Shown: positions 1 to 45,671 of the stretch, piece after piece
Numbering within the stretch: position 1 is the stretch's first letter
Layout: each line of letters begins with the position of its first letter
Assembly: GCF_003334335.1 (NCBI RefSeq)
Contig: NZ_QOWQ01000024.1
Length of the DNA stretch: 64,000 bases
Direction: 5' to 3' (one strand)
Source of the DNA: Escherichia coli
GTDB taxonomy: Bacteria > Pseudomonadota > Gammaproteobacteria > Enterobacterales > Enterobacteriaceae
Position numbers and translations under genes: made by a program
The notes under the pieces: model-generated
Database searches by the model: none
Told to the model about the DNA's origin: nothing
What the model saw: only the letters and a program-made list of their open reading frames with translations

Positions 1-64
1 ACGCGAGGCATCGTCTTAACGAGGCACCGAGGCGTCGCATTCTTCAGATGGTTCAACCCTTAAG

Positions 65-667
65 TTAGCGCTTATGGGGATCCTCCCCGCCATTGGCAAA
101 CCAGCTTGCGGCAAGGCGCTGTTTTTCTTTCATCTGACGTTGCAGGCTATCACCGGTGATCAGCCGTAACGCCTGATTCGGGCAAGCGCGAACGCAGGCC
201 GGACCTTCTGGCAAGAAATCACACAGGTCGCATTTCACCGCGACGGTCTGGACACCAGGTTCCCAGCGCAGCAAAGCATGTTGTGTTGGCGCGTTTTCTT
301 CGCCGTCTTTGAGTGAGCCTTCAGCCTGAAAAACATATTGCGCATGGGCATTCACCGGACGGCTTCCTGAAGCGCTGATTGCGCCAAATGGGCAGACCAC
401 GGCGCAAAGCTTGCAGCCAATACAGAGGCTTTCGTTGAGTTGGATCGCATCATCCCTCTGAGAGATGGCATTGACCGGGCAGACCTGCAGGCAAGGGGCT
501 TCCTCACAGTGATGACACACGACAGGGGCAGTGATTGTTGACGTCTTCGCCAGGGCCAGGCGCGGGTGTTGCTGTAAACCTTGCGTTTTATGCACGTCCG
601 AACAGGCAGCGAGACAGGTATTACATCCTGTACACCACAGTGGTTCGGCCACCACAAAGCGGTTCAT
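65..667 (-). CDS. hyfA: hydrogenase-4 component A, 4Fe-4S ferredoxin-type subunit
   Basis: ORF-track frame 65..706 with repeated CxxCxxCxxxCP ferredoxin motifs. Start placed at the internal ATG (665-667) because an AAGGAG Shine-Dalgarno lies 6 nt upstream and a sigma-54 -24/-12 motif sits between the two candidate ATGs. Confidence 0.85.
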   Translation of the reverse strand: MNRFVVAEPLWCTGCNTCLAACSDVHKTQGLQQHPRLALAKTSTITAPVVCHHCEEAPCLQVCPVNAISQRDDAIQLNESLCIGCKLCAVVCPFGAISASGSRPVNAHAQYVFQAEGSLKDGEENAPTQHALLRWEPGVQTVAVKCDLCDFLPEGPACVRACPNQALRLITGDSLQRQMKEKQRLAASWFANGGEDPHKR

Positions 668-8810: not shown

Positions 8811-8890
8811 GGCCTGATAAGACGCGTGAGCGTCGCATCAGGCATCGTTCACCATTGCCGGATGCGGCGTTAACGCCTTATCCGGCCTAC
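8811..8890. repeat. BIME (pair of inverted REP elements)
   Basis: GCCTGATAAGACGCG...CGCATCAGGC and GCCGGATGCGGCG...CTTATCCGGCCTAC REP units between convergent ypfH and ypfN. Confidence 0.8.
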
Positions 8891-11060: not shown

Positions 11061-11121
11061 ATTCCTGAGACAAAGTACAAACAGCAAGAACCCGCTGAGC
11101 AGGTTTTTAATCGGAAAGTTG

Positions 11122-33760: not shown

Positions 33761-34987
33761 ATGGGAATTAACGAAATCATCATGTACATCATGATGTTCT
33801 TTATGCTGATAGCTGCCGTAGACAGGATCCTGTCGCAGTTCGGCGGTTCTGCTCGTTTCCTCGGTAAGTTCGGTAAAAGTATCGAAGGATCAGGCGGTCA
33901 GTTCGAAGAAGGCTTTATGGCAATGGGCGCACTGGGCCTGGCGATGGTCGGTATGACCGCGCTGGCACCGGTACTGGCTCACGTTCTCGGGCCGGTAATT
34001 ATTCCGGTTTACGAAATGCTCGGCGCTAACCCATCGATGTTCGCCGGAACACTGCTGGCGTGCGATATGGGCGGCTTCTTCCTCGCCAAAGAGCTGGCGG
34101 GCGGCGACGTAGCCGCGTGGCTATACTCTGGGTTAATTCTCGGGTCGATGATGGGGCCAACGATTGTGTTTTCCATTCCGGTGGCGCTCGGCATTATCGA
34201 ACCTTCTGACCGTCGTTATCTGGCGCTCGGCGTGCTGGCGGGCATTGTGACCATTCCGATTGGTTGTATCGCTGGTGGTCTGGTTGCTATGTACTCCGGT
34301 GTGCAGATCAACGGCCAGCCGGTGGAATTCACTTTCGCCCTGATCCTGATGAACATGATCCCGGTGATCATTGTTGCGATTCTGGTGGCGCTGGGGCTGA
34401 AATTCATCCCGGAAAAAATGATCAACGGCTTCCAGATCTTCGCCAAATTCCTCGTTGCATTGATCACCCTCGGTCTTGCCGCTGCGGTAGTGAAATTCCT
34501 GCTTGGCTGGGAACTGATCCCCGGTCTGGATCCTATCTTTATGGCCCCTGGCGATAAACCCGGTGAGGTGATGCGCGCCATTGAAGTTATCGGTTCTATC
34601 TCCTGCGTTCTGTTAGGGGCGTATCCGATGGTGCTGCTGCTGACTCGCTGGTTTGAAAAACCGCTGATGAGCGTCGGTAAAGTACTGAATATGAACAACA
34701 TCGCGGCAGCCGGCATGGTGGCAACGCTTGCCAACAACATCCCGATGTTCGGCATGATGAAGCAGATGGATACCCGCGGCAAAGTCATCAACTGCGCCTT
34801 CGCCGTTTCCGCTGCTTTCGCCCTGGGCGACCACTTAGGCTTCGCCGCTGCCAACATGAACGCCATGATCTTCCCGATGATTGTCGGCAAGTTGATCGGC
34901 GGCGTAACGGCGATTGGCGTGGCGATGATGCTGGTGCCAAAAGAAGACGCGACCGCGACTAAAACCGAAGCGGAGGCACAATCGTGA
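33761..34987 (+). CDS. eutH: ethanolamine permease
   Basis: 408-aa polytopic membrane protein ORF. Confidence 0.93.
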   Translation: MGINEIIMYIMMFFMLIAAVDRILSQFGGSARFLGKFGKSIEGSGGQFEEGFMAMGALGLAMVGMTALAPVLAHVLGPVIIPVYEMLGANPSMFAGTLLACDMGGFFLAKELAGGDVAAWLYSGLILGSMMGPTIVFSIPVALGIIEPSDRRYLALGVLAGIVTIPIGCIAGGLVAMYSGVQINGQPVEFTFALILMNMIPVIIVAILVALGLKFIPEKMINGFQIFAKFLVALITLGLAAAVVKFLLGWELIPGLDPIFMAPGDKPGEVMRAIEVIGSISCVLLGAYPMVLLLTRWFEKPLMSVGKVLNMNNIAAAGMVATLANNIPMFGMMKQMDTRGKVINCAFAVSAAFALGDHLGFAAANMNAMIFPMIVGKLIGGVTAIGVAMMLVPKEDATATKTEAEAQS

Positions 34988-36387
34988 ACACTCGCCAGCT
35001 ATTGAGCGTCGGTATCGATATCGGCACCACCACCACCCAGGTGATTTTCTCCCGGCTGGAGCTGGTTAACCGTGCGGCGGTGTCGCAGGTGCCGCGCTAC
35101 GAATTCATTAAACGCGAAATTAGCTGGCAAAGTCCGGTGTTCTTTACCCCTGTCGATAAACAGGGCGGTTTAAAAGAAGCGGAACTGAAAACCTTAATAC
35201 TCGAGCAATATCATGCTGCGGGTATTGAGCCGGAAAGCGTTGATTCTGGTGCCATCATCATCACCGGTGAAAGCGCGAAAACCCGCAATGCTCGCCCGGC
35301 GGTGATGGCGCTCTCTCAGTCGCTGGGCGATTTTGTCGTTGCCAGCGCCGGGCCGCACCTCGAATCCGTGATCGCCGGTCACGGAGCCGGGGCACAAACC
35401 CTTTCTGAACAACGGCTGTGTCGGGTACTGAATATCGACATCGGCGGTGGCACCGCGAACTACGCCCTGTTCGATGCCGGAAAAATCAGCGGCACTGCCT
35501 GCCTCAACGTCGGTGGTCGCCTGCTGGAAACCGACAGCCACGGGCGCGTGGTTTACGCTCATAAACCGGGGCAGATGATTGTGGATGAGTGCTTCGGTGC
35601 AGGCACCGACGCCCGTTCGCTGACCGGCGCGCAGCTGGTGCAGGTGACCCGGCGGATGGCAGAACTGATTGTCGAAGTGATTGACGGAACGCTCTCACCG
35701 CTCGCGCAGGCATTGATGCAAACCGGTTTGCTGCCCGCAGGTGTTACGCCCGAAATCATTACGCTTTCTGGCGGCGTGGGCGAATGTTATCGCCACCAGC
35801 CCGCCGACCCGTTCTGTTTTGCCGATATTGGCCCGCTGCTGGCAACTGCGCTGCATGACCATCCGCGCCTGCGTGAGATGAACGTACAGTTTCCGGCGCA
35901 AACCGTGCGCGCCACGGTGATTGGCGCGGGCGCGCATACCCTTTCGCTCTCTGGCAGCACAATCTGGCTTGAGGGCGTACAACTGCCGCTGCGCAATTTG
36001 CCGGTGGCGATCCCGATTGATGAAACGGATCTGGTGGGGGCCTGGCAACAGGCGCTGATTCAGCTGGATCTTGATCCCAAAACTGACGCGTACGTGCTGG
36101 CGCTTCCCGCCTCGCTGCCTGTGCGTTACGCCGCGGTACTGACGGTCATCAACGCGTTGGTCGATTTCGTCGCGCGTTTTCCGAATCCGCATCCCCTGCT
36201 GGTGGTGGCCGGGCAGGACTTTGGTAAAGCTCTGGGCATGTTGTTGCGCCCACAGCTACAACAACTCCCGTTGGCAGTCATTGACGAAGTGATTGTCCGC
36301 GCGGGGGACTATATCGACATTGGTACGCCTCTTTTTGGCGGATCGGTTGTGCCGGTGACGGTGAAATCACTCGCATTTCCTTCCTGA
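34984..36387 (+). CDS. eutA: ethanolamine ammonia-lyase reactivating factor
   Basis: 467-aa ORF with GTG start and a 4-nt overlap (GTGA) with the eutH stop. Confidence 0.93.
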   Translation: MNTRQLLSVGIDIGTTTTQVIFSRLELVNRAAVSQVPRYEFIKREISWQSPVFFTPVDKQGGLKEAELKTLILEQYHAAGIEPESVDSGAIIITGESAKTRNARPAVMALSQSLGDFVVASAGPHLESVIAGHGAGAQTLSEQRLCRVLNIDIGGGTANYALFDAGKISGTACLNVGGRLLETDSHGRVVYAHKPGQMIVDECFGAGTDARSLTGAQLVQVTRRMAELIVEVIDGTLSPLAQALMQTGLLPAGVTPEIITLSGGVGECYRHQPADPFCFADIGPLLATALHDHPRLREMNVQFPAQTVRATVIGAGAHTLSLSGSTIWLEGVQLPLRNLPVAIPIDETDLVGAWQQALIQLDLDPKTDAYVLALPASLPVRYAAVLTVINALVDFVARFPNPHPLLVVAGQDFGKALGMLLRPQLQQLPLAVIDEVIVRAGDYIDIGTPLFGGSVVPVTVKSLAFPS

Positions 36388-36398
36388 GGGAACGACTT

Positions 36399-37760
36399 AT
36401 GAAACTAAAGACCACATTGTTCGGCAATGTATATCAGTTTAAGGATGTAAAAGAGGTGCTGGCTAAAGCCAACGAACTGCGTTCGGGGGATGTGCTGGCG
36501 GGCGTCGCAGCGGCAAGCTCACAGGAGCGCGTGGCGGCAAAGCAGGTGTTGTCGGAAATGACCGTAGCGGACATCCGCAATAATCCGGTGATTGCCTATG
36601 AAGATGACTGCGTGACGCGGCTGATTCAGGACGATGTTAACGAAACGGCCTACAACCAGATTAAAAACTGGAGCATCAGCGAACTGCGTGAGTATGTGCT
36701 GAGCGATGAAACCAGCGTGGACGACATTGCCTTTACCCGCAAAGGGCTGACCTCGGAAGTGGTCGCGGCGGTAGCGAAGATTTGCTCCAACGCGGACCTG
36801 ATCTACGGCGCGAAGAAAATGCCGGTAATCAAAAAGGCCAATACCACCATCGGTATTCCGGGCACCTTTAGCGCCCGTTTGCAGCCAAATGACACCCGTG
36901 ACGACGTGCAAAGTATCGCCGCGCAAATCTACGAAGGGCTTTCCTTCGGGGTGGGCGATGCGGTGATCGGCGTTAACCCGGTGACTGACGACGTGGAAAA
37001 CTTAAGCCGCGTGTTGGATACCATCTATGGCGTGATCGACAAATTCAACATCCCAACTCAGGGCTGTGTACTGGCGCACGTCACCACCCAGATCGAAGCG
37101 ATCCGTCGTGGCGCACCGGGCGGGCTGATTTTCCAGAGTATCTGTGGCAGCGAAAAAGGGCTGAAAGAGTTTGGCGTGGAGCTGGCGATGCTCGACGAAG
37201 CGCGCGCAGTGGGCGCGGAGTTCAACCGTATCGCCGGGGAAAACTGCCTCTACTTCGAAACCGGACAAGGCTCTGCGCTATCCGCTGGCGCTAACTTCGG
37301 CGCAGACCAGGTAACGATGGAAGCACGTAACTACGGGCTGGCGCGTCATTACGATCCGTTTATCGTCAACACCGTGGTCGGCTTTATTGGGCCGGAGTAT
37401 CTCTACAACGACCGCCAGATTATCCGTGCTGGCTTAGAAGATCACTTTATGGGCAAGCTGAGCGGCATCTCTATGGGCTGTGACTGCTGTTATACCAACC
37501 ACGCTGACGCTGACCAGAACCTCAACGAAAACCTGATGATCCTGCTCGCCACCGCAGGCTGCAACTACATCATGGGGATGCCGCTGGGTGATGACATCAT
37601 GCTCAACTACCAGACCACCGCATTCCACGATACCGCCACTGTGCGTCAGTTACTCAACCTGCGCCCGTCACCGGAGTTTGAACGCTGGCTGGAAAGCATG
37701 GGCATTATGGCAAACGGTCGCCTGACCAAACGGGCGGGCGATCCGTCACTGTTCTTCTGA
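36399..37760 (+). CDS. eutB: ethanolamine ammonia-lyase large subunit
   Basis: 453-aa ORF, 11 nt downstream of eutA. Confidence 0.96.
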   Translation: MKLKTTLFGNVYQFKDVKEVLAKANELRSGDVLAGVAAASSQERVAAKQVLSEMTVADIRNNPVIAYEDDCVTRLIQDDVNETAYNQIKNWSISELREYVLSDETSVDDIAFTRKGLTSEVVAAVAKICSNADLIYGAKKMPVIKKANTTIGIPGTFSARLQPNDTRDDVQSIAAQIYEGLSFGVGDAVIGVNPVTDDVENLSRVLDTIYGVIDKFNIPTQGCVLAHVTTQIEAIRRGAPGGLIFQSICGSEKGLKEFGVELAMLDEARAVGAEFNRIAGENCLYFETGQGSALSAGANFGADQVTMEARNYGLARHYDPFIVNTVVGFIGPEYLYNDRQIIRAGLEDHFMGKLSGISMGCDCCYTNHADADQNLNENLMILLATAGCNYIMGMPLGDDIMLNYQTTAFHDTATVRQLLNLRPSPEFERWLESMGIMANGRLTKRAGDPSLFF

Positions 37761-37780
37761 TGACGCGGAGATAACATATC

Positions 37781-38668
37781 ATGGATCAAAAACAGATTGA
37801 AGAAATTGTACGCAGCGTGATGGCGTCAATGGGACAAGCGGCCCCCGCGCCGTCAGAAGCAAAGTGCGCCACCACCAACTGTGCGGCACCGGTGACCTCG
37901 GAAAGCTGTGCGCTGGATTTAGGTTCCGCTGAAGCAAAAGCGTGGATTGGTGTTGAAAATCCGCATCGCGCAGACGTATTAACAGAACTGCGCCGCAGCA
38001 CCGTGGCCCGCGTTTGTACCGGTCGTGCCGGTCCGCGTCCACGTACGCAGGCGCTGCTGCGTTTCCTGGCCGATCACTCTCGTTCGAAAGATACCGTACT
38101 GAAAGAAGTGCCGGAAGAGTGGGTGAAAGCGCAGGGCTTGCTGGAAGTACGCTCTGAAATTAGCGACAAAAATCTCTACCTGACTCGCCCGGATATGGGC
38201 CGCCGCCTGTGTGCAGAAGCTGTTGAAGCGCTGAAAGCGCAGTGTGTTGCCAATCCGGACGTACAGGTCGTTATTTCTGATGGCCTGTCAACTGATGCGA
38301 TCACCGTGAACTACGAAGAGATCCTGCCACCGCTGATGGCGGGCCTGAAACAGGCCGGGCTGAAAGTCGGTACACCATTCTTTGTTCGTTATGGTCGCGT
38401 GAAGATTGAAGATCAGATCGGTGAGATCCTCGGCGCGAAAGTAGTGATCCTGCTGGTGGGCGAACGTCCGGGGTTGGGTCAGTCAGAAAGCCTCTCCTGC
38501 TACGCCGTTTACTCGCCGCGTATGGCGACCACCGTTGAGGCCGATCGCACCTGTATCTCTAACATTCACCAGGGCGGCACGCCGCCGGTTGAAGCCGCAG
38601 CCGTCATTGTGGATTTGGCGAAACGTATGCTGGAGCAGAAAGCATCCGGCATCAACATGACCCGATAA
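37781..38668 (+). CDS. eutC: ethanolamine ammonia-lyase small subunit
   Basis: 295-aa ORF with an N-terminal amphipathic targeting-type extension ([19 protein letters not shown]). Confidence 0.96.
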
Positions 38669-38677
38669 GGAGGCATC

Positions 38678-39337
38678 ATGCCAGCTTTAGATTTGATTCG
38701 ACCGTCTGTCACCGCTATGCGGGTGATTGCCTCCGTTAACGCCGATTTTGCGCGTGAACTGAAATTGCCGCCGCATATTCGTAGCCTCGGTCTGATTTCT
38801 GCCGACTCCGATGACGTCACCTACATTGCCGCTGATGAAGCGACCAAGCAGGCGATGGTGGAAGTGGTGTATGGCCGCTCGCTATATGCGGGCGCTGCAC
38901 ACGGCCCGTCACCGACTGCCGGTGAAGTGCTGATTATGCTTGGTGGGCCAAACCCGGCGGAAGTGCGTGCAGGTCTGGATGCGATGATTGCGCATATTGA
39001 AAATGGCGCAGCTTTCCAGTGGGCTAATGACGCGCAAGATACGGCATTCCTGGCACATGTAGTTTCGCGTACCGGTTCTTATCTCTCATCAACCGCCGGG
39101 ATCACGCTTGGCGATCCGATGGCGTATCTGGTGGCACCGCCGCTGGAAGCGACCTATGGCATTGATGCAGCCCTGAAGTCTGCCGACGTACAGCTGGCGA
39201 CCTATGTCCCGCCACCGTCTGAAACCAACTACTCGGCAGCATTTTTAACCGGTAGCCAGGCAGCGTGTAAAGCAGCCTGTAACGCCTTTACCGATGCAGT
39301 GCTGGAAATCGCGCGTAATCCAATCCAGCGTGCGTAA
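38678..39337 (+). CDS. eutL: BMC-T tandem-domain shell protein EutL
   Basis: 219-aa ORF. Confidence 0.93.
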
Positions 39338-39349
39338 CGGAGGTTGCCG

Positions 39350-39850
39350 ATGATCAATGCACTGGGATTGCTGGAAGTGGACGGCATGGTCGCCGCGATA
39401 GATGCAGCGGATGCCATGCTCAAAGCAGCTAACGTTCGTCTGCTCAGTCACGAAGTGCTTGACCCTGGTCGCTTAACGCTGGTGGTGGAAGGCGATCTGG
39501 CGGCGTGTCGTGCGGCGCTGGACGCAGGTTGTGCTGCCGCGATGCGTACCGGGCGTGTCATCAGCCGCAAGGAGATCGGTCGGCCAGACGATGACACCCA
39601 GTGGCTGGTTACTGGCTTTAACCGCCAGCCGAAGCAACCCGTAAGGGAACCCGACGCGCCAGTTATCGTCGCGGAATCTGCTGACGAGTTGTTGGCGCTG
39701 TTAACATCAGTACGTCAGGGAATGACGGCAGGAGAAGTGGCTGCCCACTTTGGCTGGCCGCTGGAAAAAGCCAGAAATGCGCTCGAACAGCTCTTTTCTG
39801 CCGGGACGTTACGTAAACGCAGTAGTCGTTATCGTCTCAAGCCCCATTAA
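39350..39850 (+). CDS. eutK: BMC-H shell protein EutK with C-terminal extension
   Basis: ORF-track frame 39344..39850. The second ATG gives a 166-aa product beginning MINALGLLEVDGMVAAIDAADAMLKAA (BMC domain), followed by a basic C-terminal domain. Confidence 0.9.
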   Translation: MINALGLLEVDGMVAAIDAADAMLKAANVRLLSHEVLDPGRLTLVVEGDLAACRAALDAGCAAAMRTGRVISRKEIGRPDDDTQWLVTGFNRQPKQPVREPDAPVIVAESADELLALLTSVRQGMTAGEVAAHFGWPLEKARNALEQLFSAGTLRKRSSRYRLKPH

Positions 39851-39895
39851 CCTGTCGGAGGTGCCGGGTGTCCTACAACACCCGGCATTAACATC

Positions 39896-40948
39896 ATGAA
39901 AAAGACCCGTACAGCCAATTTGCACCATCTTTATCATGAACCCTTACCCGAAAACCTGAAGCTCACGCCGAAGGTCGAAGTGGATAATGTTCATCAACGA
40001 CAGACAACGGATGTCTATGAACATGCTTTAACGATTACCGCCTGGCAGCAGATTTACGATCAGCTGCATCCGGGCAAGTTTCATGGTGAATTTACGGAAA
40101 TTCTACTCGATGATATTCAGGTTTTTCGTGAATACACCGGTCTGGCGCTGCGTCAGTCGTGCCTGGTCTGGCCGAACTCGTTCTGGTTTGGCATTCCGGC
40201 GACGCGCGGTGAGCAGGGATTTAACGGTTCGCAATGTCTGGGAAGCGCGGAAATCGCCACCCGCCCTGGTGGCACTGAATTTGAACTGAGCACGCCGGAT
40301 GATTACACGATCCTGGGCGTGGTGCTTTCTGAAGATGTCATCACCCGGCAGGCTAACTTTTTGCATAACCCGGATCGGGTATTACATATGTTGCGTAACC
40401 AGTCGGCGCTGGAAGTGAAAGAGCAGCATAAAGCCGCGCTGTGGGGCTTTGTCCAACAGGCGCTGGCGACGTTTTGCGAGAATCCGGAAAATCTCCATCA
40501 GCCTGCAGTGCGAAAAGTGCTGGGGGATAATTTGCTAATGGCGATGGGGGCCATGCTGGAAGAAGCGCAACCAATGGTGACGGCGGAAAGCATCAGTCAT
40601 CAGAGTTACCGTCGATTGCTTTCCCGCGCCCGTGAATATGTGCTGGAAAACATGTCCGAACCGGTGACGGTGCTGGATTTGTGTAATCAACTGCATGTCA
40701 GCCGCCGCACGCTACAAAACGCGTTTCACGCTATTTTAGGCATTGGCCCGAACGCGTGGCTGAAACGCATTCGCCTGAACGCCGTACGCCGCGAACTGAT
40801 AAGTCCGTGGTCGCAAAGTATGACGGTAAAAGACGCCGCCATGCAGTGGGGATTCTGGCATCTGGGGCAATTTGCCACGGATTACCAGCAGCTGTTTTCC
40901 GAGAAGCCGTCACTGACGCTGCATCAGCGGATGCGGGAGTGGGGGTGA
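39896..40948 (+). CDS. eutR: AraC-family transcriptional activator of the eut operon
   Basis: 350-aa ORF with a C-terminal AraC-type helix-turn-helix. Last gene of the operon. Confidence 0.93.
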
Positions 40949-40953
40949 GGGAG

Positions 40954-41856
<903 letters not shown>

Positions 41857-42726
41857 TTATCGCTTTTTCGAATGTGCTTTCTGGTTGTCGAACCAGTGGA
41901 AATAACTGATCACGCCTTCAGCAATCGCTGTGGCGATTTTCTGACGAAACGCCGCCGTGCCTAACAGCCGTTCTTCTTCCGGGTTGGTGATAAACGAGGT
42001 TTCCACCAGCACCGAAGGAACCGACGGTGATTTCAACACCACAAATGCCGCTTGTTCGGTGTTGCGGCTGTGCAGTTTATGCACCGGCTTAATCTTCTTC
42101 AGAATATGCGAGCCGAGCGTCAGACTATTTTTAATGGTATCTGTTTGCACCAGATCAAACAGCACTTGTTGCAATAGGTGATCCTTGTCAGTCGCCTTTT
42201 TACCGGCAACTTCATCGGCGCGGTTTTCGCGTTCAGACAGGTATTTCGCCATTGCGCTACTTGCCCCACGGTTAGAGAGGGCAAATACCGAAGCACCGGC
42301 AGCTTTCGGGTTGGTAAAGCCATCGGCATGAATTGACATAAACAGATCTGCGCCATGTTTATGGGCGATTTCAACGCGATCGTAAAGTGGGATAAACGTA
42401 TCGCCAGAACGCGTTAAACGCGCATCAATCCCATGATTACGCAAAATGGAACGGACGTTTTTAGCAATCGCCAGCACCACATGTTTTTCTTTCGAACCGT
42501 TGCGTCCGATCGCTCCGGTATCAATTCCGCCGTGACCTGGATCGAGAACAACGACACGTTTGCCGCCAGATTTTTTGGCTTTCGGCTTGCTGTGTCCGTT
42601 GCTGGTTTTTAAAAGTTCGTCTTTGGCGATGGCTTGCGACATTCCTGACAACGTCAGGGCAGCCAAACCGGCTTTCAGCACCTGGCGGCGCGAAGTGAGT
42701 GTTTTTAGTGGTTTAAAAGTGCTCAT
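41857..42726 (-). CDS. amiA: N-acetylmuramoyl-L-alanine amidase A
   Basis: 289-aa ORF with a Tat-type signal peptide (SRRQVLKAGLAALT) and amidase_3 domain, 3 nt upstream of hemF. Confidence 0.95.
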   Translation of the reverse strand: MSTFKPLKTLTSRRQVLKAGLAALTLSGMSQAIAKDELLKTSNGHSKPKAKKSGGKRVVVLDPGHGGIDTGAIGRNGSKEKHVVLAIAKNVRSILRNHGIDARLTRSGDTFIPLYDRVEIAHKHGADLFMSIHADGFTNPKAAGASVFALSNRGASSAMAKYLSERENRADEVAGKKATDKDHLLQQVLFDLVQTDTIKNSLTLGSHILKKIKPVHKLHSRNTEQAAFVVLKSPSVPSVLVETSFITNPEEERLLGTAAFRQKIATAIAEGVISYFHWFDNQKAHSKKR

Positions 42727-42939
42727 ACGGCCTGAGTTGTAATAATAAAGTTCCAGATGTTATATCGTATCGCGTAATCCGTTACGACGGTTTGCTGTTG
42801 AGAATTGTTTTACTTTTCATTTCAATAGTTGACAACTCCCCATTATGCCACTTTTTCAACCGATTTTCGTCAGATATTGGCTAATTCGACCGTTCACGCC
42901 ATAATCAGCCTTTTAACCCGCAAAAAGGTAACGAATACC

Positions 42940-43365
42940 ATGGAGATACGCGTATTTCGCCAGGAAGATTTCGAAGAGGTCATCACCCTTTGGGAGCGTT
43001 GCGACTTGCTGCGTCCGTGGAACGATCCGGAAATGGACATCGAGCGTAAGATGAACCATGACGTCAGTTTGTTTTTGGTCGCTGAGGTAAACGGTGACGT
43101 GGTCGGAACGGTGATGGGCGGTTATGACGGGCATCGCGGGTCTGCTTATTATCTTGGCGTGCATCCAGAGTTTCGTGGGCGTGGGATTGCCAATGCGTTG
43201 CTTAATCGGCTGGAGAAAAAGCTGATTGCTCGTGGCTGCCCGAAAATTCAGATCAATGTGCCGGAAGATAACGACATGGTGCTCGGAATGTATGAACGCC
43301 TGGGATATGAACACGCCGACGTGCTGAGTCTGGGTAAGCGTTTGATTGAAGATGAAGAGTACTGA
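42940..43365 (+). CDS. ypeA: GNAT-family acetyltransferase YpeA
   Basis: ORF-track frame 42829..43365. ATG at 42940 gives a 141-aa product beginning [19 protein letters not shown] with a GNAT motif ([10 protein letters not shown]). Confidence 0.9.
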
Positions 43366-43801
43366 GTTTCATCCTGTCCATTATGATGCGCACGGTCGCC
43401 TGCGTTTACCCTTGCTCTTCTGGCTTGTGCTATTGCTTCAGGCGCGAACCTGGGTGCTGTTTGTCATTGCCGGTGCGTCGCGCGAGCAGGGTACTGCGCT
43501 GCTAAATCTGTTTTATCCCGATCACGATAATTTCTGGCTGGGGCTGATTCCTGGCATTCCGGCGGTGCTGGCGTTTTTGTTGAGCGGTCGGCGGGCTACG
43601 TTTCCTCGCACCTGGCGTGTACTCTATTTTCTGTTGCTGTTGGCGCAGGTGGTTTTACTTTGCTGGCAACCGTGGCTGTGGCTGAACGGTGAATCCGTTA
43701 GCGGTATCGGTCTGGCGCTGGTAGTGGCGGATATTGTGGCGTTAATCTGGCTGCTGACCAATCGACGTTTACGCGCTTGTTTTAATGAAGTAAAAGAATA
43801 A
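43346..43801 (+). CDS. yfeZ: inner-membrane protein YfeZ
   Basis: About 150-aa hydrophobic ORF overlapping the ypeA 3-prime end. The exact start (43346 or 43352) is uncertain. Confidence 0.85.
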
Positions 43802-43861
43802 CGGCACTTTTTGGTGAATTTGCACTCCAAGCAACGTTATTGAATAACCAAAGGAAGTGAC

Positions 43862-44437
43862 ATGAAATCGCTGCGTTTAATGTTATGCGCTATGCCATTG
43901 ATGCTGACCGGCTGTTCCACGATGTCGTCAGTTAACTGGTCTGCCGCTAACCCGTGGAACTGGTTTGGGTCGTCCACCAAAGTGAGCGAGCAGGGCGTGG
44001 GTGAATTAACGGCGTCCACACCACTGCAAGAACAAGCCATTGCCGATGCGCTTGATGGCGATTATCGCCTGCGCAGCGGAATGAAAACCGCGAACGGCAA
44101 CGTGGTGCGCTTTTTTGAAGTGATGAAGGGCGACAACGTGGCGATGGTGATTAACGGCGATCAAGGCACGATCAGTCGCATTGACGTGCTGGATAGCGAT
44201 ATTCCTGCTGACACCGGTGTTAAAATCGGTACACCGTTTAGCGACCTTTACAGCAAAGCATTTGGCAATTGCCAAAAAGCTGATGGTGATGATAATCGTG
44301 CCGTCGAATGTAAAGCCGAAGGCAGTCAACATATTAGCTACCAGTTCAGCGGGGAATGGCGTGGTCCTGAAGGGTTAATGCCTTCGGACGATACCCTGAA
44401 AAACTGGAAAGTCAGTAAAATTATCTGGCGGCGTTAA
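43862..44437 (+). CDS. yfeY: lipoprotein YfeY
   Basis: 191-aa ORF with signal peptide and lipobox LTGC. Confidence 0.9.
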   Translation: MKSLRLMLCAMPLMLTGCSTMSSVNWSAANPWNWFGSSTKVSEQGVGELTASTPLQEQAIADALDGDYRLRSGMKTANGNVVRFFEVMKGDNVAMVINGDQGTISRIDVLDSDIPADTGVKIGTPFSDLYSKAFGNCQKADGDDNRAVECKAEGSQHISYQFSGEWRGPEGLMPSDDTLKNWKVSKIIWRR

Positions 44438-44448
44438 TTTGCGTCTGA

Positions 44449-45432
<984 letters not shown>

Positions 45433-45489
45433 GCGTTTCTGATTCATTGATTAAAGGCCAGGCAGTAACATTACTGACTGGCCTCAGAT

Positions 45490-45628
45490 TGTTGACCAAG
45501 TGCGCGTTGTACACGCCGGATGCGGCGTGAACGCCTTATCCGGCCTACGAAATCGTGCTAATTCAATATATTGTGGGCTCCACGTAGGCCTGATAAGCGT
45601 AGCGCATCAGGCAGTTTTGCGTTTGTCA
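45490..45628. repeat. RIP-type BIME (REP - IHF-site core - REP)
   Basis: Two inverted REPs flank the AT-rich core AATTCAATATATTG, which fits the IHF consensus WATCAANNNNTTR at 12 of 13 positions. Same element family as 56431..56567. Confidence 0.8.
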
Positions 45629-45671
45629 GCACTCTCAGACCAGCCAGTAACATTACTGACTGGCCTTTTTA

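Follow-up and report, generated by a model that had tools for sequence, protein, structure and literature searches.

The eutA-eutB junction of the E. coli DNA analyzed here (a stretch of 64,000 nucleotides, hereafter the window) is uninterrupted, and we are highly confident that it is the ordinary junction of an uninterrupted 17-gene EUT1 operon in a strain very close to K-12. An uninterrupted eutA-eutB junction is already known and is an ordinary state of this locus. The 8-bp duplication at the site, its prevalence, the eut-minus phenotype of K-12 and the rescue of this phenotype by scarless removal of the prophage have all been published, and beyond correct annotation the finding is of little consequence.

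When we inspected the open reading frame listing together with the sequence, we found that eutA stops at 36387 and that eutB starts at 36399, which leaves a spacer of 11 nt (36388-36398, plus strand). The junction reads ...CATTTCCTTCCTGA GGGAACGACTT ATGAAA..., and the 22-nt string covering it (36380-36401) occurs only once in the window. Because a gene junction is read here straight from the sequence, a chance explanation is not at issue, and nothing was found that contradicts the structural reading. The upstream gene eutA (34984-36387, 467 aa) encodes the reactivase of ethanolamine ammonia-lyase, begins with GTG and ends with TGA. It matched NF007991 with 1068.7 bits over positions 1-467 of 467 and does not differ from MG1655 at any nucleotide. 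The downstream gene eutB (36399-37760, 453 aa, ATG start) encodes the large subunit of ethanolamine ammonia-lyase, matched NF011649 with 664.7 bits and is identical to its MG1655 counterpart. A GAGGG motif at 36386-36390 (plus strand), which shares bases with the stop codon of eutA and is separated from the ATG by 8 nt, is likely to be the Shine-Dalgarno sequence of eutB.

The two genes belong to a complete set of 17 eut genes (26063-40948), which are all encoded on the plus strand between maeB and hemF in the canonical order eutSPQTDMNEJGHABCLKR. Each open reading frame matched its own NCBIfam profile above the curated cut-off and covered nearly the whole profile. The operon starts with the shell protein gene eutS (26063-26398, 111 aa; NF012012, 1-111/111), which is followed by eutP (26411-26890, 159 aa; NF012011, 1-159/159), eutQ (26865-27566, 233 aa; NF012001, full length), the corrinoid adenosyltransferase gene eutT (27563-28366, 267 aa; NF011595, full length) and the phosphotransacetylase gene eutD (28363-29379, 338 aa; NF007233). 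Then come the genes of the shell protein EutM (29418-29711, 97 aa; NF012018, 1-97/97), the shell vertex protein EutN (29818-30105, 95 aa; NF011992, full length), the acetaldehyde dehydrogenase EutE (30117-31520, 467 aa; NF011927, full length) and EutJ (31531-32367, 278 aa; NF011660). The alcohol dehydrogenase gene eutG (32357-33544, 395 aa; NF011998, 1-395/395) and the ethanolamine permease gene eutH (33761-34987, 408 aa; NF011665, full length) precede eutA. Downstream of eutB, the small subunit of ethanolamine ammonia-lyase is encoded by eutC (37781-38668, 295 aa; NF003971), two further shell proteins by eutL (38678-39337, 219 aa; NF011934) and eutK (39350-39850, 166 aa; NF012010, 1-166/166), and the AraC-family activator of the operon by eutR (39896-40948, 350 aa; NF007522, 1-350/350).

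Fifteen of the 17 Eut proteins do not differ from those of K-12, and eutG differs from the MG1655 gene by one synonymous substitution (32809). The exceptions are EutR, which carries an Ile110Asn exchange, and EutP, in which Met124 is replaced by Ile as in NCTC9041. Ile124 of EutP is the common non-K-12 allele. All 17 genes have the lengths of their MG1655 counterparts and none contains an internal stop codon, and thus the complete operon that the earlier note had described could be confirmed, as could the contiguous junction with its 11-nt spacer; frameshifts that might have been overlooked by eye were not found in any of the 17 genes. The intergenic gaps range from -26 to 216 nt and foreign DNA does not interrupt the operon at any point. 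The largest gap, between eutG and eutH (216 nt), contains two REP-type repeats, which are also present in MG1655. Gene number, gene order, full-length reading frames and the lack of interruption are those of the EUT1 type, the type of Salmonella and E. coli.

No terminator-like hairpin was detected on the plus strand at the eutA-eutB junction or in its 11-nt spacer, and across the operon the number of terminator-like sites (20) was not in excess of that in shuffled sequence (17.9). An Rfam scan of the whole window at the gathering threshold did not yield any structured RNA at 36300-36450. Elsewhere in the window, the Rfam matches were restricted to REP-type naRNA4 elements and one ES036. The window also holds an inverted repeat pair of about 140 nt, for which an assignment to ERIC/IRU elements was rejected, since the ERIC2 primer sequence was not found even when three mismatches were allowed. 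A simple consensus scan did not locate the promoter upstream of eutS, as is expected for an activator-dependent promoter.

In MG1655, the cryptic prophage CPZ-55 is annotated exactly between eutB and eutA (2558691-2565480, 6,790 bp). The locus of BW25113 is organized likewise, and its intZ and yffL-yffS genes are encoded on the opposite strand relative to eut. The position that the earlier note had given for this prophage is therefore correct. Alignment of the window with MG1655 yielded two blocks (76-36387 and 36365-64000, each about 99.97% identical), and the only break between them, which is also the one large gap of the alignment, is located at the eutA-eutB junction. Identity with K-12 extends from the left until 36387 and from the right beginning at 36380, so that an 8-bp core, CTTCCTGA (36380-36387, plus strand), is defined, which forms the very 3' end of eutA and includes its TGA stop. 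A longer direct repeat at CPZ-55 was ruled out: the right BLAST block reaches 36365, where the additional bases are mostly mismatched, and the match is exact only from 36380. A copy of these 8 bp is present at either end of CPZ-55, and the same duplication flanks two other IntZ-type islands; the limits at 36380 and 36387 are common to all three islands (6,782, 10,295 and 12,984 bp). The target-site duplication has been published as TCAGGAAG (PMC6379469). Since three different islands with related integrases have identical boundaries, CTTCCTGA probably serves as attachment site for IntZ-type recombination. At the end of eutA, the window has this core only once; GGGAACGACTT and the ATG of eutB follow without any island, and thus the attachment site is unoccupied. 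The earlier note had taken the 11-nt junction as the approximate prophage attachment position; the neighborhood was right, but the site itself is not the spacer but the core that abuts it.

Comparison with the K-12 locus (MG1655, BW25113) indicated flanks that are 99.97% identical, identical EutA and EutB proteins and the same CTTCCTGA at the eutA stop codon. In contrast to the window, K-12 has 6,782 bp of island DNA, and the 8-bp core is present twice; the island and the additional core together correspond to the annotated 6,790 bp. The putative Shine-Dalgarno motif GAGGG of eutB is regenerated at attR of K-12. CPZ-55 encodes an integrase, a small-terminase-like protein and a weakly replication-initiator-like protein and lacks structural genes, and in this it seems to resemble a phage satellite more closely than a degenerate phage. 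In the literature searched, we found no paper that links CPZ-55 to satellites or PICIs.

When we explored how frequently the site is occupied, we found the contiguous eutA-eutB junction in 4,965 of 5,426 complete E. coli genomes. Most E. coli have an empty site, and K-12 is the exception. Full-length CPZ-55 was present in 213 complete genomes, and all examples listed bear K-12 or laboratory strain names. About 200 further genomes contain a gene for an IntZ-like integrase (80-90% identity); in the two of them that were examined, this gene stands at the head of another island, which occupies the same 8-bp core. The islands of YJ6 (10.3 kb) and BMH-17-0027 (13.0 kb) share with CPZ-55 this core and an integrase gene of 80-90% DNA identity to intZ that adjoins eutB; unlike in the window the site is occupied, and the cargo is different. 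A prevalence of 8% has been published (PMC6379469), and a "novel prophage" of the uropathogenic strain U71 has been reported at the eutA/eutB site (PMC6652756). A family of small IntZ islands recurrently lands at the eutA stop codon.

According to the proposed scenario, IntZ-type tyrosine integrases would insert genomic islands into the last 8 nt of eutA, and K-12 carries one of them at this core, CPZ-55 (6.8 kb), which is oriented against the operon. At the empty site, eutB follows eutA after 11 nt with what appears to be its own ribosome-binding site, so that eutBCLKR could share a transcript with eutS-A. Such co-transcription would be driven by the promoter in front of eutS, a target of activation by EutR when ethanolamine and B12 are present. 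BW25113 neither induces eutB nor forms microcompartments (PMC7617246), and after scarless removal of the prophage it could again grow with ethanolamine as the nitrogen source (PMC11334477). The resulting BW25113 eut+ strain, the proteins of which are near-identical to those of the window, can draw its nitrogen from ethanolamine for growth (PMC11334477), and for the uninterrupted arrangement it has been shown experimentally that it supports ethanolamine use and microcompartment formation (PMC11334477, PMC7617246). Salmonella enterica LT2, E. coli Nissle 1917 and W3110 eut+ share with the window the 17 genes, their order and an insertion-free eutA-eutB junction, and only Asn110 of EutR and Ile124 of EutP distinguish the window from the protein set of W3110/BW25113 eut+. 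We infer that the source strain is Eut+, provided that EutR still works with the Ile110Asn exchange.

This exchange is the reason why the "potentially fully functional" operon of the earlier note has to be qualified: its structure is intact, but a nearly invariant residue of its activator has been replaced, and the replacement is both rare and radical. The Asn codon is AAC (40223-40225, with the A at 40224), and EutR differs at this residue from MG1655, BW25113, YJ6, BMH-17-0027 and NCTC9041. The exchange replaces a hydrophobic by a polar residue; in 40 homologues with identities down to 44%, position 110 is Ile (39 sequences) or Val (one sequence). In the AlphaFold model (mean pLDDT of the block about 86), the residue is predicted to close a beta strand of the N-terminal domain. 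When a 91-nt query was used in megablast, which requires an exact word of 28 nt, matches were obtained in 5,416 complete RefSeq E. coli genomes, none of which carried the Asn110 allele as an exact 91-mer. A sequencing error was excluded since the exact protein is present in several E. coli assemblies at NCBI, one contig of which equals the window over 13 kb. These data are consistent with an operon that is structurally intact but has lost its inducibility or retained it in weakened form, so that the strain would be Eut- or weakly Eut+. We consider this possible, although somewhat improbable: the allele is found on six contigs of draft E. coli assemblies, which suggests that it has persisted, and the other 16 eut genes are intact and do not show the decay that might follow loss of use. 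That our strain and the few draft isolates with Asn110 are natural regulatory mutants, in which a perfect operon is not properly induced, appears unlikely to us.

The relation of the window to K-12 bears on two further explanations. Over about 64 kb, the window and MG1655 are collinear and share 99.97% identity, with 14 substitutions and 4 small indels. It carries neither CPZ-55 nor the K-12 alleles at variable sites over 64 kb: at six positions (23679, 26767, 26782, 43784, 45112, 49999) it agrees with the non-K-12 strain NCTC9041 and not with MG1655, and six further positions differ from both. NCTC9041 is among the closest complete genomes (7 substitutions in 50 kb). The source strain is expected to belong to phylogroup A, near K-12. 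In addition, an end of IS186/IS421 abuts hyfA at positions 75/76, which MG1655 does not have. It might be argued that the window stems from a K-12 derivative from which CPZ-55 has been removed, either by engineering or by excising spontaneously. Excision regenerates a perfect attB, so that precise excision and a never-occupied site yield the same sequence; moreover, K-12-labelled genomes with a contiguous and 100% identical junction do exist (NZ_CP174267.1, the O16:H48 strain PG20180171, AG100), and the W3110 laboratory stock of one study is eut+ (PMC11334477). However, the pattern of substitutions and the IS content led us to reject this origin as highly improbable: neither these alleles nor the IS186/IS421 end at hyfA fit a cured K-12 strain, and 13 kb of the window are identical to a draft contig from GCA_012738575.1. 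The divergence of the window is far above that known among K-12 derivatives.

Equally improbable is the lineage assignment of the earlier note, which had concluded from the intact junction that the strain is non-K-12-like. CPZ-55 is indeed missing from the window and present in MG1655 and BW25113, but the assignment cannot be reconciled with the collinearity and the 99.97% identity with MG1655, with the 15 identical Eut proteins or with closest complete genomes such as NCTC9041, and the empty site says nothing on lineage because it is the majority state of the species and not a distinctive mark.

Taken together, an ordinary uninterrupted EUT1 operon in a close relative of K-12 remains the preferred reading. 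Judged from its sequence, the window strain possesses the genetic equipment for microcompartment-based ethanolamine catabolism, a pathway that is linked to fitness in the gut and in the urinary tract. If EutR should indeed be impaired, the Ile110Asn exchange would constitute a second route to the Eut- state, by point mutation, next to the prophage insertion of K-12. For the species, K-12 is an exception in its ethanolamine use, and metabolic models or conclusions that start from MG1655 or BW25113 give a wrong picture of most E. coli in this respect (PMC7617246, PMC11334477, PMC6379469).

The ORF table assigns a 467-codon frame to eutA (34984-36387, + strand) and a 453-codon frame to eutB (36399-37760, + strand), and the gene products match NCBIfam NF007991 (1068.7 bits, profile 1-467 of 467) and NF011649 (664.7 bits), respectively. 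The junction reads ...TTCCTTCCTGA GGGAACGACTT ATG... with a spacer of 11 nt, and thus the eutA end, the eutB start and the spacer length given in an earlier note on this DNA were exact. Neighboring + strand ORFs match the NCBIfam models of EutS, P, Q, T, D, M, N, E, J, G, H, C, L, K, and R; every score exceeds the curated cut-off, and profile coverage is essentially end to end. When the gene limits were set by anchoring each gene on its MG1655 counterpart, the operon extended from eutS (26063-26398) through eutR (39896-40948), with maeB on one side and hemF on the other, an arrangement shared with other E. coli. Each of the 17 genes is as long as its MG1655 counterpart, none contains an internal stop, and the complete operon claimed previously is therefore confirmed. 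MG1655 has the same protein sequence for fifteen of the 17 genes, the exceptions being EutP (M124I) and EutR (I110N). The 216-nt gap between eutG and eutH is mostly filled by two tandem 88-nt REP-type copies (33543-33630 and 33643-33730; 100-nt period, 97% identical), which are also present in MG1655, and this spacer contains an Rfam naRNA4 (CssrE) match (33599-33680, 71.8 bits).

In the MG1655 annotation (NC_000913.3), a 6,790-bp 'cryptic prophage CPZ-55' (2558691-2565480) separates eutB (b2441) from eutA (b2451) and contains intZ and yffL-yffS. BW25113 shows the same arrangement, with eut and the CPZ-55 genes on opposite strands, and both annotations bear out the position given in the earlier note. 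Alignment of the window against 81 kb of MG1655 yielded two blocks, window 76-36387 (MG1655 2601792-2565481; 10 mismatches) and window 36365-64000 (MG1655 2558709-2531078; 4 mismatches and 4 small indels). A large break occurred solely at the eutA-eutB junction, as predicted for a gap of ~6.8 kb. In MG1655, CPZ-55 (locus L005, 33691-40480) encodes an integrase, a small-terminase-like YffO (phrog_1482, E 5.5e-13) and YffL, a weak match to replication initiators, and there were no capsid or tail genes among its genes. Such a set of genes resembles a phage satellite more than a decayed phage; no paper linking CPZ-55 to satellites or PICIs was found in the literature searched.

Exact identity to K-12 extends from the left up to 36387 and begins from the right at 36380. 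Because these limits overlap at 36380-36387, the 8 nt CTTCCTGA occur on both sides of the K-12 island and once in the window. These 8 nt form the 3' end of eutA, TGA stop included, and the 11-nt spacer lies directly downstream. The spacer, which had been proposed as the approximate attachment position, therefore adjoins the core but is not itself the crossover. Since the core is duplicated, EutA and the eutB leader are unchanged in K-12, and the retained leader includes GAGGG, a putative eutB ribosome-binding site that shares bases with the eutA stop codon and stops 8 nt short of the ATG. The 8-bp target duplication described for CPZ-55, TCAGGAAG (PMC6379469), is the reverse complement of this core, and a UPEC isolate was reported to have another prophage at this site (PMC6652756). 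Everything structural on the window junction is already published. The same 8 nt bound a 10,295-bp island in YJ6 (L003 7082-17376) with IS1, murI, gadC, and a truncated glutamate decarboxylase gene, and a 12,984-bp island in BMH-17-0027 (L004 1666-14649) with an HNH endonuclease and many hypothetical genes, including one for a 726-aa protein. In both strains, an intZ-like integrase gene adjoins eutB. Different islands with identical bounds and related integrase genes suggest that a family of IntZ-type integrases uses the core repeatedly as attB.

A 1-kb probe spanning the junction found it contiguous in 4,965 of 5,426 complete RefSeq E. coli genomes, and full-length CPZ-55 (at least 99% identity) was present in 213, with K-12 or laboratory strain names in every example among the matches listed. 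About 200 further genomes matched the integrase end only (80-90% identity), and both of those examined have this integrase at the head of another island occupying the same site. An empty site is the usual state, from which K-12 departs; a CPZ-55 prevalence of 8% has been reported (PMC6379469). The K-12 strain AG100 (NZ_LN832404.1; L002 1989-2089) lacks CPZ-55 and instead has the eutA 3' end and spacer duplicated in tandem at the junction (90 bp), which RefSeq annotates as a second 'EutA' of 24 aa. This duplication could be an assembly artefact or the scar of an imprecise loss.

The earlier note had assigned the window to a non-K-12-like lineage, but collinearity and 99.97% identity with MG1655 contradict this. 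Although close, the window is not K-12 itself, because it carries NCTC9041-like positions, has an IS end at hyfA and shares sequence with a draft contig. Six variable positions match the non-K-12 strain NCTC9041 and not MG1655, and six more are unlike both. Substitutions differing from both strains were seen at 11106 (intergenic near ypfM), 14073 (acrD Q67H), 19534 (ypfG, synonymous), 20738 (tktB A499T), and 32809 (eutG, synonymous). Window 33896-46948 is identical to a contig of draft assembly GCA_012738575.1. Precise excision and a never-occupied site are indistinguishable by sequence alone; the ancestral empty state is favored since the closest relatives are empty too.

Window 1-75 is not hyfA but the terminal 75 nt of an IS186/IS421 element. 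This sequence is multi-copy (a median of 3 per genome) and in other genomes adjoins an 'IS4-like element IS421 family transposase'; IS421 is a synonym of IS186. The IS end meets MG1655 coordinate 2601792 at window 75/76, at a GGGGATCCTCCCC sequence within the hyfA 3' end, and an insertion there would interrupt the hydrogenase 4 genes at the hyfA/hyfB boundary. Rfam naRNA4 (nucleoid-associated ncRNA 4, REP-derived) matched both strands at 8811-8887 (- strand 92.7 bits, + strand 61.5 bits). Two ~140-nt intergenic repeats in inverted orientation (~89% identical) lie between yfeX and pbp4b (45498-45636) and between cysM and yfeS (56419-56560), with an Rfam ES036 (CssrF) match at 56467-56509 on the - strand. 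A primer-sequence test ruled out ERIC elements.

EutR is an AraC-type activator required for induction of the eut operon. Its residue 110 is Asn in the window (ATC to AAC, codon 40223-40225; A at 40224) and Ile in MG1655, BW25113, YJ6, BMH-17-0027, and NCTC9041, a caveat that the earlier note had missed. None of the 5,416 matching complete genomes carried the exact 91-mer around this site (best match 98.9%), and the 51-mer gave no match in megablast, which needs a 28-nt exact word. The allele is real, since the exact N110 protein is recorded from several NCBI E. coli assemblies (six contigs, draft). Among 40 aligned full-length homologues (as low as 44% identity), 39 have Ile and one has Val at this position, which falls within a conserved G-F/Y-I-G motif. 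In the AlphaFold model (mean pLDDT 83.8), residue 110 ends the beta strand 108-110 of the N-terminal beta-rich domain. The exchange may weaken this activator of the operon; a substantial defect is a real possibility, but less likely than not.

In BW25113, a response to ethanolamine was seen for eutS and eutR but not for eutB, and the strain forms no microcompartments and shows no ethanolamine-dependent growth (PMC7617246). After scarless removal of the prophage, BW25113 again used ethanolamine as nitrogen source and grew as well as a W3110 eut+ stock (PMC11334477). Since the Eut proteins of the window match those of K-12 in all but two residues, BW25113 eut+ is the closest available experiment, and this comparison predicts a working ethanolamine pathway in the window strain.
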